Source: Candidatus Poribacteria bacterium
Lineage (GTDB): Bacteria > Poribacteria > WGA-4E > WGA-3G
DNA: 64,000 bases
Direction of reading: 5' to 3'
Assembly (NCBI GenBank): GCA_965205015.1
Contig: OZ242029.1
Coordinates: 2,112,001-2,176,000, forward strand
The position numbers and the translations under genes were made by a program. Position 1 is the stretch's first letter, and each line of letters begins with the position of its first letter. Shown piece by piece: positions 9,277-47,108 of this stretch. The notes beneath the pieces are model-generated. The model saw only the letters and a program-made list of their open reading frames with translations, was not told the DNA's origin and did no database searches.

Positions 9277-10665
9277 ATGAATTTCCACGATACAATTGCA
9301 GCCATCGCAACAGCACGCGGTGAAGCCGGCATCGGCATCGTCCGAGTGAGTGGTGACCTTGCCCTACCGATTGCCACTGAATTGTTCCGATCACCGCGCG
9401 GTGTGTCTCCCACAGAACTGTCAACGCATACCCTTACATACGGGCACGTCATAGATACAAACGCATCCGATGAAGTTATCGACGAAGTGCTACTCGGTAT
9501 TATGCACGCACCCAACACATATACCGGTGAGGACATCGTCGAATTTAACTGCCACGGCGGAATCGTAACACTCACGGCGGTGTTGGACTTGGTGCTGAAG
9601 AGCGGAGCACGGGTCGCCGAACCCGGAGAATTTACAAAACGTGCTTTCCTCAACGGAAAACTGGATTTAGCACAAGCGGAAGCAGTCGCCGAACTCATCG
9701 CCTCAAAAACAGAGCTCAGCCGAAAGATCGCTATAGACACACTCGCTGGAAAACTCTCTGATACTGTAAATTCCCTCAGCGATCGACTTGCTGACTTGCT
9801 CGCAGAAATTGAAGCTTCCATCGACTTCCCCGAGGAAGATCTGGATTTCATGAAGGTGGAAACGCAACTTGAAGCGGCGCATGCTGTTCAGAACGACTTA
9901 ACGACACTGCTTGACACTGCCGACGAGGGGAGAATTATCACAGAAGGGGTCAAGGTCGCTATACTCGGAAAACCGAACGTCGGAAAATCGAGTCTGCTCA
10001 ATGCGCTCGTCGGTACGACACGTGCAATCGTTACAGACATACCCGGTACAACGCGCGATACAATTGAAGAAACGATTAATGTTAACGGTATCCCGTTGAA
10101 ACTTATTGATACCGCCGGGATTCGACAGACAGATGATTTTGTAGAACAACAGGGTGTTCAACGGAGCAAAGCGGTGATTGACAGTGCAGAGCTGCTGCTC
10201 TTGATGTTCGATGCTTCGCAATCTCTGAACAACGCGGATCTCGAACTCTTACAGACAGCGCACTCCACCGCGGCAATTCTTATTCTCAACAAGGTGGATC
10301 TACCAGTTGTGACACCGCCAACGACATTACTTATGCACTCTCCTAAAAAGCGGATTGTCGAGACAGCGATTCCTGAGGGCAAAGGACTTGATGCACTAAA
10401 GTCTATGATCTGTGAGGAATTGATTGGAGGGGAATTAGGCGTCGGTGAATCGCCGATTCTGACAAACGCTCGCCACCAAGAAGCGCTCCGACGCGCAAGC
10501 GAGGGACTCAATTATGCGATAGAGAGCCTCGAAAATGGTATGCCTCCTGATCTCGTCGCCGTCGATCTGCGAATTAGTTTGGACGGTCTCGGAGATATCG
10601 TCGGTAAAACGACAACTGAAGATATTTTGGATAGGATCTTCTCTCAGTTCTGCGTCGGAAAATAA
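9277..10665 (+). CDS. mnmE: tRNA modification GTPase MnmE
   Basis: DTIAAIAT, GKPNVGKSS, PGTTRD, DTAG, NKVD, terminal FSQFCVGK. Confidence 0.97.
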   Translation: MNFHDTIAAIATARGEAGIGIVRVSGDLALPIATELFRSPRGVSPTELSTHTLTYGHVIDTNASDEVIDEVLLGIMHAPNTYTGEDIVEFNCHGGIVTLTAVLDLVLKSGARVAEPGEFTKRAFLNGKLDLAQAEAVAELIASKTELSRKIAIDTLAGKLSDTVNSLSDRLADLLAEIEASIDFPEEDLDFMKVETQLEAAHAVQNDLTTLLDTADEGRIITEGVKVAILGKPNVGKSSLLNALVGTTRAIVTDIPGTTRDTIEETINVNGIPLKLIDTAGIRQTDDFVEQQGVQRSKAVIDSAELLLLMFDASQSLNNADLELLQTAHSTAAILILNKVDLPVVTPPTTLLMHSPKKRIVETAIPEGKGLDALKSMICEELIGGELGVGESPILTNARHQEALRRASEGLNYAIESLENGMPPDLVAVDLRISLDGLGDIVGKTTTEDILDRIFSQFCVGK

Positions 10666-10759
10666 AAAAGTGAGAACTTTTATCGTGATTGGGTGTGTCT
10701 ATTTCCTGCAGGCGAGCAGTGGGAATCATTCTGGACACAACATCACAAAGGAGTGAGTC

Positions 10760-10960
10760 ATGTTGGGAGCAAAACAACAGTGGTGCCCGCGATGCCAAAG
10801 ACACGTACAAACAGAGCAGAAGCAATCCTACATCGGCAGACAGAAAGAGCTCGTCAGAATTGTTATTACCTGTTTCAAGTGTCGGACAACACTGTCGAGT
10901 AAAACAACCAGCGCAGCCGCGCTTGAGCAGAGCGGAGAAGCGGTACCAACGCAACAGTAG
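10760..10960 (+). CDS. Small zinc-ribbon-like protein
   Basis: AAGGAG SD; CPRC...CFKC pair in 66 aa. Confidence 0.6.
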   Translation: MLGAKQQWCPRCQRHVQTEQKQSYIGRQKELVRIVITCFKCRTTLSSKTTSAAALEQSGEAVPTQQ

Positions 10961-11042
10961 TGCCAATGTGCAATAATACTGCTCAAATGAATGAAATCGT
11001 AAGTAAAATTAAGGCGTTATTAAACAAAAAAGGAGAAGACTA

Positions 11043-11957
11043 ATGTTTAATTCTGTTTTCCGCCGCGTATCACTCGGGGTTCTGCTCCTGATGGTCGGCA
11101 CAGTTCCCGCGCTCATCGCGAGCGAGGAAGTTAAATGGGAAAAGACCCTTGAGGACAGCATGGCGAAAGCCGAGAAGACCGGCAAACCGATGATGATGGA
11201 TTTCTATACCGATTGGTGAGGGTTCTGTAAGCGGCTGGATGCCGAAACGTTTACGGATGCACGCATTATCGAGCTCTCTGAAAAGTTTGTCCCCGTCAAG
11301 GTAAATCCCGAAGATAAGAATTATCCACTCAATGAAGAGACGCGAAGTCGCTACGGGGTCACTGGTTACCCAGCAGTCCTGTTCGTCAGTCCAGATGGAG
11401 GGCTCATTGAAAAGGCTTCAGGATTTCTCACGCCGGAACAGTTTTCACCGATTATGAAAAATGCTTTGGCTAAAGAGGAAACCTTTTCGAAGAAACTTGA
11501 TGCACTGAAGAAGAAACCGGACGATGCCAAACTCAACGCGCAGGTCGCGCTTACCTACATCGAACGGAATCAGCTTGAAAAAGCAGGCGCCTTCAGTGAA
11601 AAAGCATTTGAGCAGGATCCGAAAAACCGCACCAAACTCATTCCCGACCTGCACAACCAATTGGGACTCGCTTACGGCGTACTGCTTGAGCAAGCTATGC
11701 CTGAAAACACCGAAGAGGCGGAGGCGTACTTTGAAAAGGCTGTCTCTCACTTCAAAACCGTCATAGATGTCTACCCGAAAAGCAAGGCACATGAACCCGC
11801 CCAATACTATCTCGGTGTGACATACGCCATCAAACGGAATTTTGAAGAGGGGATCGCCGTGCTTGAGAAGTTATCCCGCCATGCAAAGGACGAGAACATC
11901 AGGCAGGACGCCGAGGCGATGCTGGAATGGGTCAAAGATCGGGCGAGTTCCAACTAA
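11043..11957 (+). CDS. Exported thioredoxin-fold plus TPR protein, probable selenoprotein (UGA-Sec at codon 59)
   Basis: AGGAG SD, ATG 11043, signal peptide, then GKPMMMDFYTDW-TGA(11217)-GFCKRL and YGVTGYP (cis-Pro). The frame continues into the track's TPR ORF 11454-11957. Confidence 0.85.
11224..11257 (+). promoter_or_regulatory. Candidate bacterial SECIS hairpin
   Basis: TCTGTAAGCG pairs with CGTTTACGGA (10 bp, 2 G-U), with an apical GC-TGGAT-GC loop starting about 17 nt after the UGA. Confidence 0.6.
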
Positions 11958-39849: not shown

Positions 39850-39933
39850 GCCCCTGTGGTGGAATTTGGTATACACAGCAGGTTGAGGGCCTGTGCCTTA
39901 ATTGGCATACTGGTTCGAGTCCAGTCGGGGGCA
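39850..39933 (+). tRNA. tRNA-Leu(GAG)
   Basis: GCCCCTG/CGGGGGC acceptor stem, anticodon arm GCAGG-TTGAGGG-CCTGT, long variable arm, GGTTCGAGTCC. Confidence 0.93.
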
Positions 39934-46423: not shown

Positions 46424-46495
46424 GCTGACGTGGCTCAATGGTAGAGCAAGTGATTTGTAATCACTAGGTTGGAGGTTCGATTCCTCTCGTCAGCT
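46424..46495 (+). tRNA. tRNA-Thr(TGT)
   Basis: GCTGACG/CGTCAGC acceptor, AGTGA-TTTGTAA-TCACT anticodon arm. Confidence 0.95.
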
Positions 46496-46503
46496 TTTTT
46501 AAT

Positions 46504-46585
46504 GGGGGTATGCTAGAGCGGTCAAATAGGGCAGACTGTAAATCTGTTGGCTATGCCTACGGTGGTTCGAATCCATCTGCCCCCA
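46504..46585 (+). tRNA. tRNA-Tyr(GTA)
   Basis: GGGGGTA/TGCCCCC acceptor, GCAGA-CTGTAAA-TCTGT, long variable arm. Confidence 0.95.
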
Positions 46586-46604
46586 TCTCTTTTTATTAGA
46601 TGCT

Positions 46605-46677
46605 GCGGGAGTAGCTCAGCTGGTAGAGCATTGGCCTTCCAAGCCATGTGTCGCGGGTTCGATTCCCGTCTCCCGCT
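46605..46677 (+). tRNA. tRNA-Gly(TCC)
   Basis: GCGGGAG/CTCCCGC acceptor, TGGC-CTTCCAA-GCCA. Confidence 0.95.
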
Positions 46678-46697
46678 TGTCGGTGTTTATTATCTTT

Positions 46698-46773
<76 letters not shown>

Positions 46774-46797
46774 CTTATCGAAAGTAGAGGGTTTATT

Positions 46798-46950
46798 ATG
46801 CCCAGAGACATTGTAGTATTAGCATGTGATGCATGTAGTCAACGGAATTATGTGACAACCCGAAACCGCCGGACGAACCAAAACCGGTACGAACGGAAAA
46901 AATACTGTCGCTTCTGTCGAAAGCATACATCCCACAAGGAAACACGATAA
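46798..46950 (+). CDS. rpmG: 50S ribosomal protein L33 (Zn-binding type)
   Basis: [16 protein letters not shown]...[17 protein letters not shown]. Confidence 0.95.
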
Positions 46951-47020
46951 CTTTTTGGATAGGGACGATAACACCACTCTGATTATCGAATGGGTGCGTG
47001 ATCTCCTACGAAAAACTTGC

Positions 47021-47094
47021 AGGCCAGTAGCTCCAACGGCTAGAGCGTCGGTCTCCAAAACCGAATGTTGGGGGTTCGAATCCCTCCTGGCCTG
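47021..47094 (+). tRNA. tRNA-Trp(CCA)
   Basis: AGGCCAG/CTGGCCT acceptor, TCGGT-CTCCAAA-ACCGA; canonical position before secE. Confidence 0.95.
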
Positions 47095-47108
47095 CCTTTA
47101 ATAATCTT

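Follow-up and report, generated by a model that had tools for sequence, protein, structure and literature searches.

A gene for a predicted exported thioredoxin-fold selenoprotein with a tetratricopeptide repeat domain in Poribacteria

In the 64,000-nucleotide (nt) stretch of contig OZ242029.1 analysed here (positions 2,112,001 to 2,176,000 of a Candidatus Poribacteria assembly; hereafter the window, to which all coordinates refer), the reading frame 11043-11957 contains a TGA codon at the position of the attacking cysteine of a thioredoxin-type active site. The frame appears to be one intact Poribacteria selenoprotein gene in which the UGA at codon 59 is recoded as selenocysteine (Sec, U), and we put the probability of this reading at about 0.9. 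The product is predicted to be a thioredoxin-fold thiol:disulfide oxidoreductase with the active site W-U-G-F-C and a C-terminal tetratricopeptide repeat (TPR) domain, and we infer from its N-terminus that it is exported. Our confidence in the functional details, namely the location of the protein, the direction of electron flow, its clients, the function of the TPR domain and the source of electrons, is lower than that in the recoding itself.

The gene had been proposed by a reading of the nucleotide letters without database searches (the sequence-only reading), which noted a strong Shine-Dalgarno sequence before ATG 11043, a TGA at 11217 falling on the first Cys of a WCxxC motif and a frame that stays open for another 245 codons. 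Each of these features was recovered. An AGGAG motif precedes the start codon (Table 1); translated with TGA as U, the frame holds a single internal TGA in the context DFYTDW-U-GFCKRL and continues for 245 codons to a TAA stop; and residue 59 aligns with the first Cys of the WCGPC motif in PDB entry 2kuc. A plain list of open reading frames (ORFs) shows just two pieces of the gene, one of 58 residues (11043-11219) and one of 167 residues (11454-11957), the second of which had already been pointed out as all that the ORF track displays. The picture in public data is similar. A search of 5.8 billion proteins with the gene product returned 241 matches; the best 120 of these are nearly all 218 residues long and cover the last 72% of the query, the pattern produced when gene callers stop at the shared TGA and restart at codon 87. 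The 58-residue fragment has also been called as a protein in a public database (P0254). The gene is mis-annotated almost everywhere, public predictions consisting of a 218-residue “TPR protein” or the 167-residue piece, which hides the redox enzyme.

Conservation of the in-frame TGA

A tblastn scan of one genome per species returned 61 loci, 60 of them titled Poribacteria or uncultured bacterium and one from Aminicenantes. When the DNA of these loci was read, TGA was present at the identical codon in 60/60 Poribacteria loci, which match the protein over its full length with identities of 38-88% and share the active-site context DFYTDW-TGA-GxC (TxC in one locus). The second sample comprised 120 genomes from the phylum of one relative of the window (G001), with the gene counted as present when a match reached E ≤ 1e-20 (E, expect value). 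It was present with full-length matches in 110 of the 120 genomes, and the best match holds one in-frame TGA in 110/110. Stop-free matches in this sample are C-terminal pieces that fall short of residue 59, while one distant match with 30% identity has TAA in place of TGA. No Cys orthologue was found within the phylum, either among the 110 gene-bearing genomes or among the 10 without the gene; the latter contain distant thioredoxin-domain matches alone, inside frames of 591-822 residues, and the absence of the gene from them may be due to genome incompleteness. TGA, and with it presumably Sec, is thus fixed at residue 59 across the sampled phylum.

In five genomes (G014, G032, G047, G075 and G121), a second N-terminal match lies on another contig and likewise has one in-frame TGA. 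This suggests either Sec-containing paralogues or strain mixtures in the bins.

Seen in one window, a bare stop codon within an open frame might result from a nonsense mutation or from faulty sequencing or assembly, so that the locus would be a pseudogene or contain a mis-sequenced Cys codon. Nothing beyond the bare stop itself favours this explanation, and the recurrence of TGA in 60/60 loci and in the best match of 110/110 gene-bearing genomes contradicts it, as does the strong conservation on both flanks of the codon. Contigs of four public runs, one of which (X1) is possibly the source of the window DNA, show no letter other than TGA at 11217-11219, and they include a second sample from another study that has 0 differences to the window over 10950-11261. 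A loose contig end in run X1 belongs to yet another relative with FYTDW-TGA-GSC. We consider the chance of an error or a nonsense mutation to be practically negligible.

In all four runs, contigs of several co-occurring related organisms pile up and break at 11214-11267. These breaks fit a stretch that co-occurring strains share without differences and at which assemblies branch.

Another alternative is that the TGA is a plain stop, separating a 58-residue leader peptide from an independent 218-residue TPR protein that starts at the GTG of codon 87. The public annotation has exactly this appearance, with most database homologues 218 residues long and starting at codon 87, and with the 58-residue fragment called as a protein. 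However, residues 60-86, the segment between the TGA and the restart codon of the gene callers, would then be untranslated, and yet they are the most conserved part of the protein, with a mean identity to the window residue of 0.80 in 60 sequences as compared to 0.59-0.68 for the other segments, and they remain in frame in 60/60 loci. This argues that the TGA does not end the protein. Moreover, codon 87 lies inside β-strand 83-87 of the thioredoxin fold in the AlphaFold2 model described below, so that a restart at this point would produce half a domain, and Cys homologues of the protein read straight through. We give extremely little credence to a plain stop at this codon.

Table 1. Features of the selenoprotein gene and its predicted product (window coordinates)
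Feature	Coordinates	Strand	Details
Shine-Dalgarno AGGAG	11031..11035	+	7 nt before ATG 11043; read from sequence
Complete selenoprotein gene (predicted)	11043..11957	+	304 codons including Sec59, stop TAA 11955-11957; translated with TGA=U
Predicted Sec-type (general secretory) signal peptide, about residues 1-26	11043..11120	+	by eye: RR n-region, 16-residue hydrophobic core, A-x-A-like end
Thioredoxin-fold domain, about residues 32-130	11136..11432	+	active site W-U-G-F-C, cis-Pro110; Pfam, PDB matches, AlphaFold2, Foldseek
In-frame TGA, read as selenocysteine (U59)	11217..11219	+	position of attacking Cys of CxxC
Clade-specific extended stem, 10 base pairs	11224..11257	+	minimum-free-energy folds; alternative to, or lower part of, the selenocysteine insertion sequence
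Conserved core of the selenocysteine insertion sequence (putative)	11232..11244	+	stem CGGC/GCCG, loop UGGAU (11236-11240)
All-helical TPR domain, about residues 131-304	11433..11954	+	Pfam TPR_19, TPR_8, TPR_2, TPR_17, TPR_14; AlphaFold2 helices

Selenocysteine machinery and the downstream hairpin

The sequence-only reading had named two signs that together would point to a broken gene, a genome lacking Sec machinery and TGC or TGT in all close relatives; what was found is TGA at 60/60 loci and complete machinery in the genomes of five relatives (5/5). All four of the components that it had proposed to search for are present in each of the five: tRNA-Sec (76-78 bits, cut-off 47), which adjoins selB (G001-G005), as well as selB (346-358 bits, cut-off 242), selA (586-606 bits, cut-off 268) and selD (360-371 bits, cut-off 125). 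The selD genes of the relatives (L080-L084, G001-G005) have one in-frame TGA each, located in a CAG-U-ASK site in four of them and in GUAAK in G004, and by this sequence evidence selD of Poribacteria is itself a selenoprotein gene. In 3/5 minimum-free-energy (MFE) folds of selD, the apical loop of a hairpin lies about 19-21 nt from the UGA. Within the window, 11 of the 39 long ORFs end in TGA (TAA 15, TAG 13), which means that TGA terminates translation in the ordinary way and has no sense-codon role in an altered code.

A putative selenocysteine insertion sequence (SECIS) is located immediately downstream of the UGA, within the coding region. Its core, CGGC-UGGAU-GCCG, comprises 13 nt that form a stem of 4 base pairs (bp) with a 5-nt loop. 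It starts 12 nt after the UGA, which puts the two G's of the loop at positions 21-22 when the U of the UGA is taken as position 1. In bacterial SECIS elements an apical-loop G lies roughly 16-37 nt from the UGA, and we take the spacing and the G-containing loop seen here to match both the E. coli fdhF SECIS and the published bacterial rules.

The strongest feature of this element is its conservation. In a codon alignment of 60 sequences, in which codons with an amino acid conserved to at least 90% were examined for synonymous variation, such variation is near zero at TGA59 (60/60), CGG64 (60/60), CTG65 (60/60), GAT66 (59/60) and GCC67 (59/60), the next-lowest value being that of TGT62 (57/60). 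In the same alignment, 2-6 codons are in use at other conserved sites for Arg, Leu and Ala. The core hairpin is present in the RNAalifold consensus and is paired in 99.1% of the alignment cells; one sequence changes a G-C pair to G-U, and two break the closing C-G pair. It is also found in the single-sequence MFE of 5/6 sequences folded, the exception being the window, where a longer stem wins. This frozen 13-nt core is as expected for a SECIS core, as far as sequence can tell.

The longer stem had been described from the sequence as a 10-bp stem with a G-containing apical loop. It does exist as an MFE fold, since 11224-11233 pairs with 11248-11257 both when 11217-11260 and when 11210-11275 is folded, but it is specific to the clade of the window, and the conserved core is the 4-bp apical hairpin at 11232-11244. 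The lower stem of the window's clade joins 11225-11231 to 11250-11256 (alignment columns 12-18 and 37-43), and 81.9% of its cells are paired; in a divergent clade the lower stem is instead GGUGU/ACACC and carries a 3-nt bulge. A further RNAalifold pairing, that of G-UGA-G with the downstream Phe-Thr codons, says little because its columns are fixed by the protein.

A number of observations weigh against recoding, or against the hairpin as its signal. The folding energy is not beyond chance, either for 11210-11275 (z = -1.27; 22/200 shuffles fold as well) or for 11217-11260 (z = -1.93; 11/200 shuffles). The long lower stem has no significant covariation, and 286/500 shuffles reach its observed pairing; in the alternative lower stem GGUGU/ACACC, a single pair scores above the shuffles, possibly as a result of clade structure. 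In the 60-sequence alignment there is no compensatory change at any base pair of the hairpin, the core being invariant. No Rfam SECIS or tRNA-Sec family matched, whether the whole window was scanned at the gathering threshold or 11150-11330 at a permissive one; the latter scan gave chance-level snoRNA matches only, of which the best had E 0.0076 and 18 bits (cut-off 45). The conserved residues R-L-D-A account for part of the nucleotide invariance, although not for the frozen third positions. For the downstream element it is thus the conservation, and not the folding energy, that is beyond chance. With regard to the machinery, the genomes searched were those of relatives, and the 64-kb window has no tRNA-Sec, only six ordinary tRNAs. 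Furthermore, selB is present in 9/10 of the phylum genomes that lack the gene, so that there is no signal of co-occurrence or co-loss. Finally, the TGA site is spanned by contigs of relatives, 88-93% alike, from two metatranscriptome libraries; these RNA-library contigs come from the relatives and may include DNA, and are not proof of the gene's transcription.

One more observation of this kind belongs to a third alternative, in which a standard tRNA (a near-cognate one for Trp or Cys) or an altered code accounts for the reading of the UGA. Three full-length database proteins (P0070, P0102 and P0066) have W at the TGA site, and TGA is one base from TGG. Two of the three come from 1.5-kb contigs, and the loci nearest to all three carry TGA. 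The W is thus most simply, and probably, a TGA that the gene caller translated under code 4 on short contigs, with a real TGG being possible in some strains. The standard code of the window, in which TGA terminates 11/39 long ORFs, is at odds with altered decoding, and so are the full Sec machinery in 5/5 relatives, the TGA in selD itself and the frozen hairpin at SECIS distance. A Trp at the attacking position would, in addition, abolish thioredoxin chemistry. Decoding by a standard tRNA is in our view very improbable, and recoding as Sec is the reading retained below.

Domain architecture and relation to known proteins

The predicted signal peptide, which the sequence-only reading had also recognized, consists of a hydrophobic N-terminus, MFNSVFRRVSLGVLLLMVGTVPALIA, followed by SEE; it was identified by eye, and cleavage would take place after LIA (between LIA and SE). 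The two arginines of its n-region are not kept in orthologues, making a twin-arginine translocation (Tat) signal unlikely, and the signal peptide has no lipobox Cys.

The remainder of the protein divides into two domains. The first matches Pfam Thioredoxin_7 (3.8e-15, residues 32-117, 56.2 bits, cut-off 27) and Thioredoxin_2 (52.5 bits, cut-off 27), as well as Thioredox_DsbH and Thioredoxin; the second matches several Pfam TPR families, in agreement with the TPRs noted earlier. No PDZ match was returned by the Pfam scan of the protein. AlphaFold2, run on an alignment of 30 sequences, yielded a model with a predicted local distance difference test (pLDDT) score of 90.4 and a predicted template modelling (TM) score (pTM) of 0.84. 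Residues 1-26 are disordered in the model, with pLDDT below 50, as expected of a signal peptide. Strand 50-54 precedes residue 59, which is located at the N-terminal end of helix 60-69. The TPR-like domain is made up of eight helices spanning 131-303, for which pLDDT is mostly above 90. The cis-Pro loop, previously picked out as GVTGYP, contains P110, which is invariant in 30/30 aligned orthologues. By fold, motif position and cis-Pro loop the protein is a thioredoxin-fold thiol:disulfide oxidoreductase, its activity being a prediction from sequence and model.

Orthologues of a divergent clade (L041-L058; for example L042:3001-4092, L045:3001-4182 and L058:3001-4173) are longer, with 340-394 residues. 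They contain 1-3 extra copies of a repeat of about 30 residues, MPDDxxLNRExxxxYLxxxxxxKAL, inserted after the first TPR, and the number of repeats therefore varies between lineages.

Among solved structures, the first domain comes closest to periplasmic reductases. In 2kuc, the residue aligned with U59 is the first Cys of TWCGPCKRL, and DsbD-gamma was also matched by sequence. The top Foldseek matches are DsbD-gamma (1uc7, E 9.5e-7, TM 0.73 to target), followed by Chlamydia DsbH (2ju5); the best structural matches overall (1uc7, 2fwe, 2ju5) have E values of 9.5e-7 to 5e-6 and TM values of 0.68-0.78 to target, with 0.72-0.78 for DsbD-gamma. DsbD-gamma and DsbH are periplasmic reductases with WCxxC, whereas the Poribacteria protein has Sec in place of Cys, no membrane domain and an added TPR domain. 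One DsbD_TM-containing ORF is found in each of 5/5 relatives' genomes, so a pathway for reduction in the periplasm is present.

The Poribacteria protein stays below the cut-off of every NCBIfam model, its best partial matches being those to TsoB and DsbD. DsbD (NF001419) scores 62.5 bits against 330, with only its C-terminal thioredoxin domain matched, the rhodanese/DsbD fusion selenoprotein TsoB (NF045694) scores 74.8 against 805, with only the DsbD-like thioredoxin domain matched, and the DsbH model scores 33.4 against 190.

E. coli YbbN, which we take to be the chaperedoxin CnoX, is cytoplasmic and lacks CxxC. Among solved structures, only YbbN (3qou) and its homologue from Salmonella (3qdn) match over the whole length, with the same order of thioredoxin domain and TPR domain and 291 and 283 aligned columns, respectively. 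Identity is 13-14%, however, and the root-mean-square deviation of about 21 Å (TM 0.28-0.30) indicates that the domains are oriented differently. The Poribacteria protein also differs from YbbN in having a predicted signal peptide and UxxC.

The sequence-only reading considered an exported Sec-thioredoxin with a TPR module to be an uncommon architecture. This did not hold for the architecture as such, since its Cys forms are common; it is the Sec form alone that is unreported in the literature searched. In a search of 1.84 billion cluster representatives, 24,211 proteins reached E ≤ 0.001. The matches listed include, apart from the Poribacteria cluster, 149 distant representatives, to which the following counts apply: 128/149 have WCxxC, typically DFYTDWCGWCKKL; 49/149 are 255-305 residues long with a single N-terminal WCxxC; 20/149 are fragments lacking the motif; and a single one has WSxxC. 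Pfam matches to both thioredoxin and TPR families are present in 11/12 full-length Cys representatives checked, which makes the architecture a common one with Cys and the Poribacteria form its Sec version. The Aminicenantes locus (L061) has Cys at the TGA position (DFYTDWCPPC). The alternation of Cys and TGA that had been suggested as a check is thus observed, with TGA in 60/60 Poribacteria loci and Cys both in L061 and in the 128/149 listed representatives.

A distant representative of 367 residues (P0127) has Ser at the attacking position, FYTDWSRWC, and may represent a redox-inactive or single-Cys form within the family.

Among bacterial selenoproteins, the thioredoxin-fold UxxC type is the most common, and the present protein belongs, by its kind, to a well-known group. 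The relevant part of a 2026 review (PMC13188914) lists both a UxxC selenoprotein family named “thiol:disulfide interchange protein” (PF13098) and a CxxU family, Trx7/PDZ. The pertinent section of Zhang et al. 2006 (PMC1794560) gives the interchange family in three genomes and names Syntrophus aciditrophicus, Geobacter metallireducens and G. uraniumreducens. As far as these published descriptions go, the Poribacteria protein resembles the interchange family in having UGA for the first Cys of CxxC, a thioredoxin fold with a Thioredoxin_2 match, Cys homologues and a SECIS (putative in our case) immediately downstream; it differs by its added TPR domain and by being fixed across the phylum. The Trx7/PDZ (seleno)protein (NF041199) is likewise a Thioredoxin_7-type selenoprotein with an added protein-binding domain, according to the same part of the review (PMC13188914), but it has CxxU instead of UxxC and PDZ instead of TPR, and the Poribacteria protein scores 27.3 bits against its cut-off of 300. 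The words “tetratricopeptide” and “TPR” have 0 occurrences in the review (PMC13188914). A TPR-fused thioredoxin selenoprotein family and its phylum-wide fixation of Sec were not found in the literature searched, although supplementary tables of large selenoproteome screens could list the family. The new details, which derive from sequence, are the TPR fusion, the predicted export signal, the fixation of Sec across the phylum and the invariant 13-nt core of the putative SECIS.

Genomic neighbourhood and possible function

The gene is preceded by yidC, jag/khpB and mnmE and followed by convergent genes for a pseudouridine synthase, a HAD hydrolase, pdxJ, an ORF without assignment and glutamate dehydrogenase. 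Judged by ORF sizes, this order is apparently kept in 5/6 relatives inspected. Among these neighbours, from yidC to glutamate dehydrogenase, there is no functional link to a substrate or redox partner, and a scan for promoters and terminators gave nothing above shuffled expectation on the + strand. The 377-nt gap between mnmE and the selenoprotein gene (10666-11042) contains only short ORFs without a Pfam match (10689-10976), and the overlapping frame 10535-10960 has a single TGA and no redox motif. We also considered other selenoprotein genes in the window; among 10 frames with a single internal TGA, only 11043-11957 has a redox motif or family support. Elsewhere in the window, a tRNA-Leu lies at 39850-39933, and a cluster of tRNA genes at 46424-47096 on the + strand reads Thr, Tyr, Gly, Thr and Trp, five in all.

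A plausible sequence of events can be drawn from these features. SelB with Sec-tRNA(Sec), recruited by the hairpin core CGGC-UGGAU-GCCG inside the ORF, would recode the UGA at 11217, and the N-terminal signal peptide would direct export through the cytoplasmic membrane. Once the protein is in the periplasm, its U59 selenolate could attack disulfides or sulfenic acids of client proteins, with C62 resolving the resulting selenenylsulfide, while the TPR domain may recruit either the client or some partner. Re-reduction of the protein would probably fall to a DsbD-type membrane electron transporter.

A more specific role, which we regard as unlikely though worth stating, is that of a periplasmic equivalent to the chaperedoxins of the cytoplasm. 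Envelope proteins that are unfolded or damaged by oxidants would be held by the TPR domain, and Sec would form reversible selenenylsulfides with their cysteines. Selenium makes such chemistry fast and resistant to irreversible over-oxidation. If true, this role would explain why no reversion from Sec to Cys is seen across the phylum, and the protein would be the first envelope-protective selenoprotein chaperone. It would also explain the enrichment of Sec machinery in sponge symbionts, for which the portion of Slaby et al. 2017 (PMC5649159) concerned with these genes reports SelA and SelB.

For specialists in selenoproteins the finding is incremental, because thioredoxin-fold UxxC proteins are the commonest kind. 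The invariant 13-nt core offers a compact candidate recognition element for the SelB of Poribacteria. In terms of the literature searched, the corrected annotation adds a selenoprotein family to Poribacteria that would be the second reported there, after the Group 4 NiFeSe hydrogenases, which include Poribacteria according to the part of PMC13582414 that deals with them. Exchange between Sec and Cys is generally described as dynamic, at least in the passages of Zhang et al. (PMC1794560) on this subject; with Sec in 110/110 gene-bearing genomes and no Cys orthologue in the phylum, selenium chemistry seems to matter for this protein. Poribacteria are a phylum of sponge symbionts, and the gene is kept throughout the sampled phylum (110/120 genomes).

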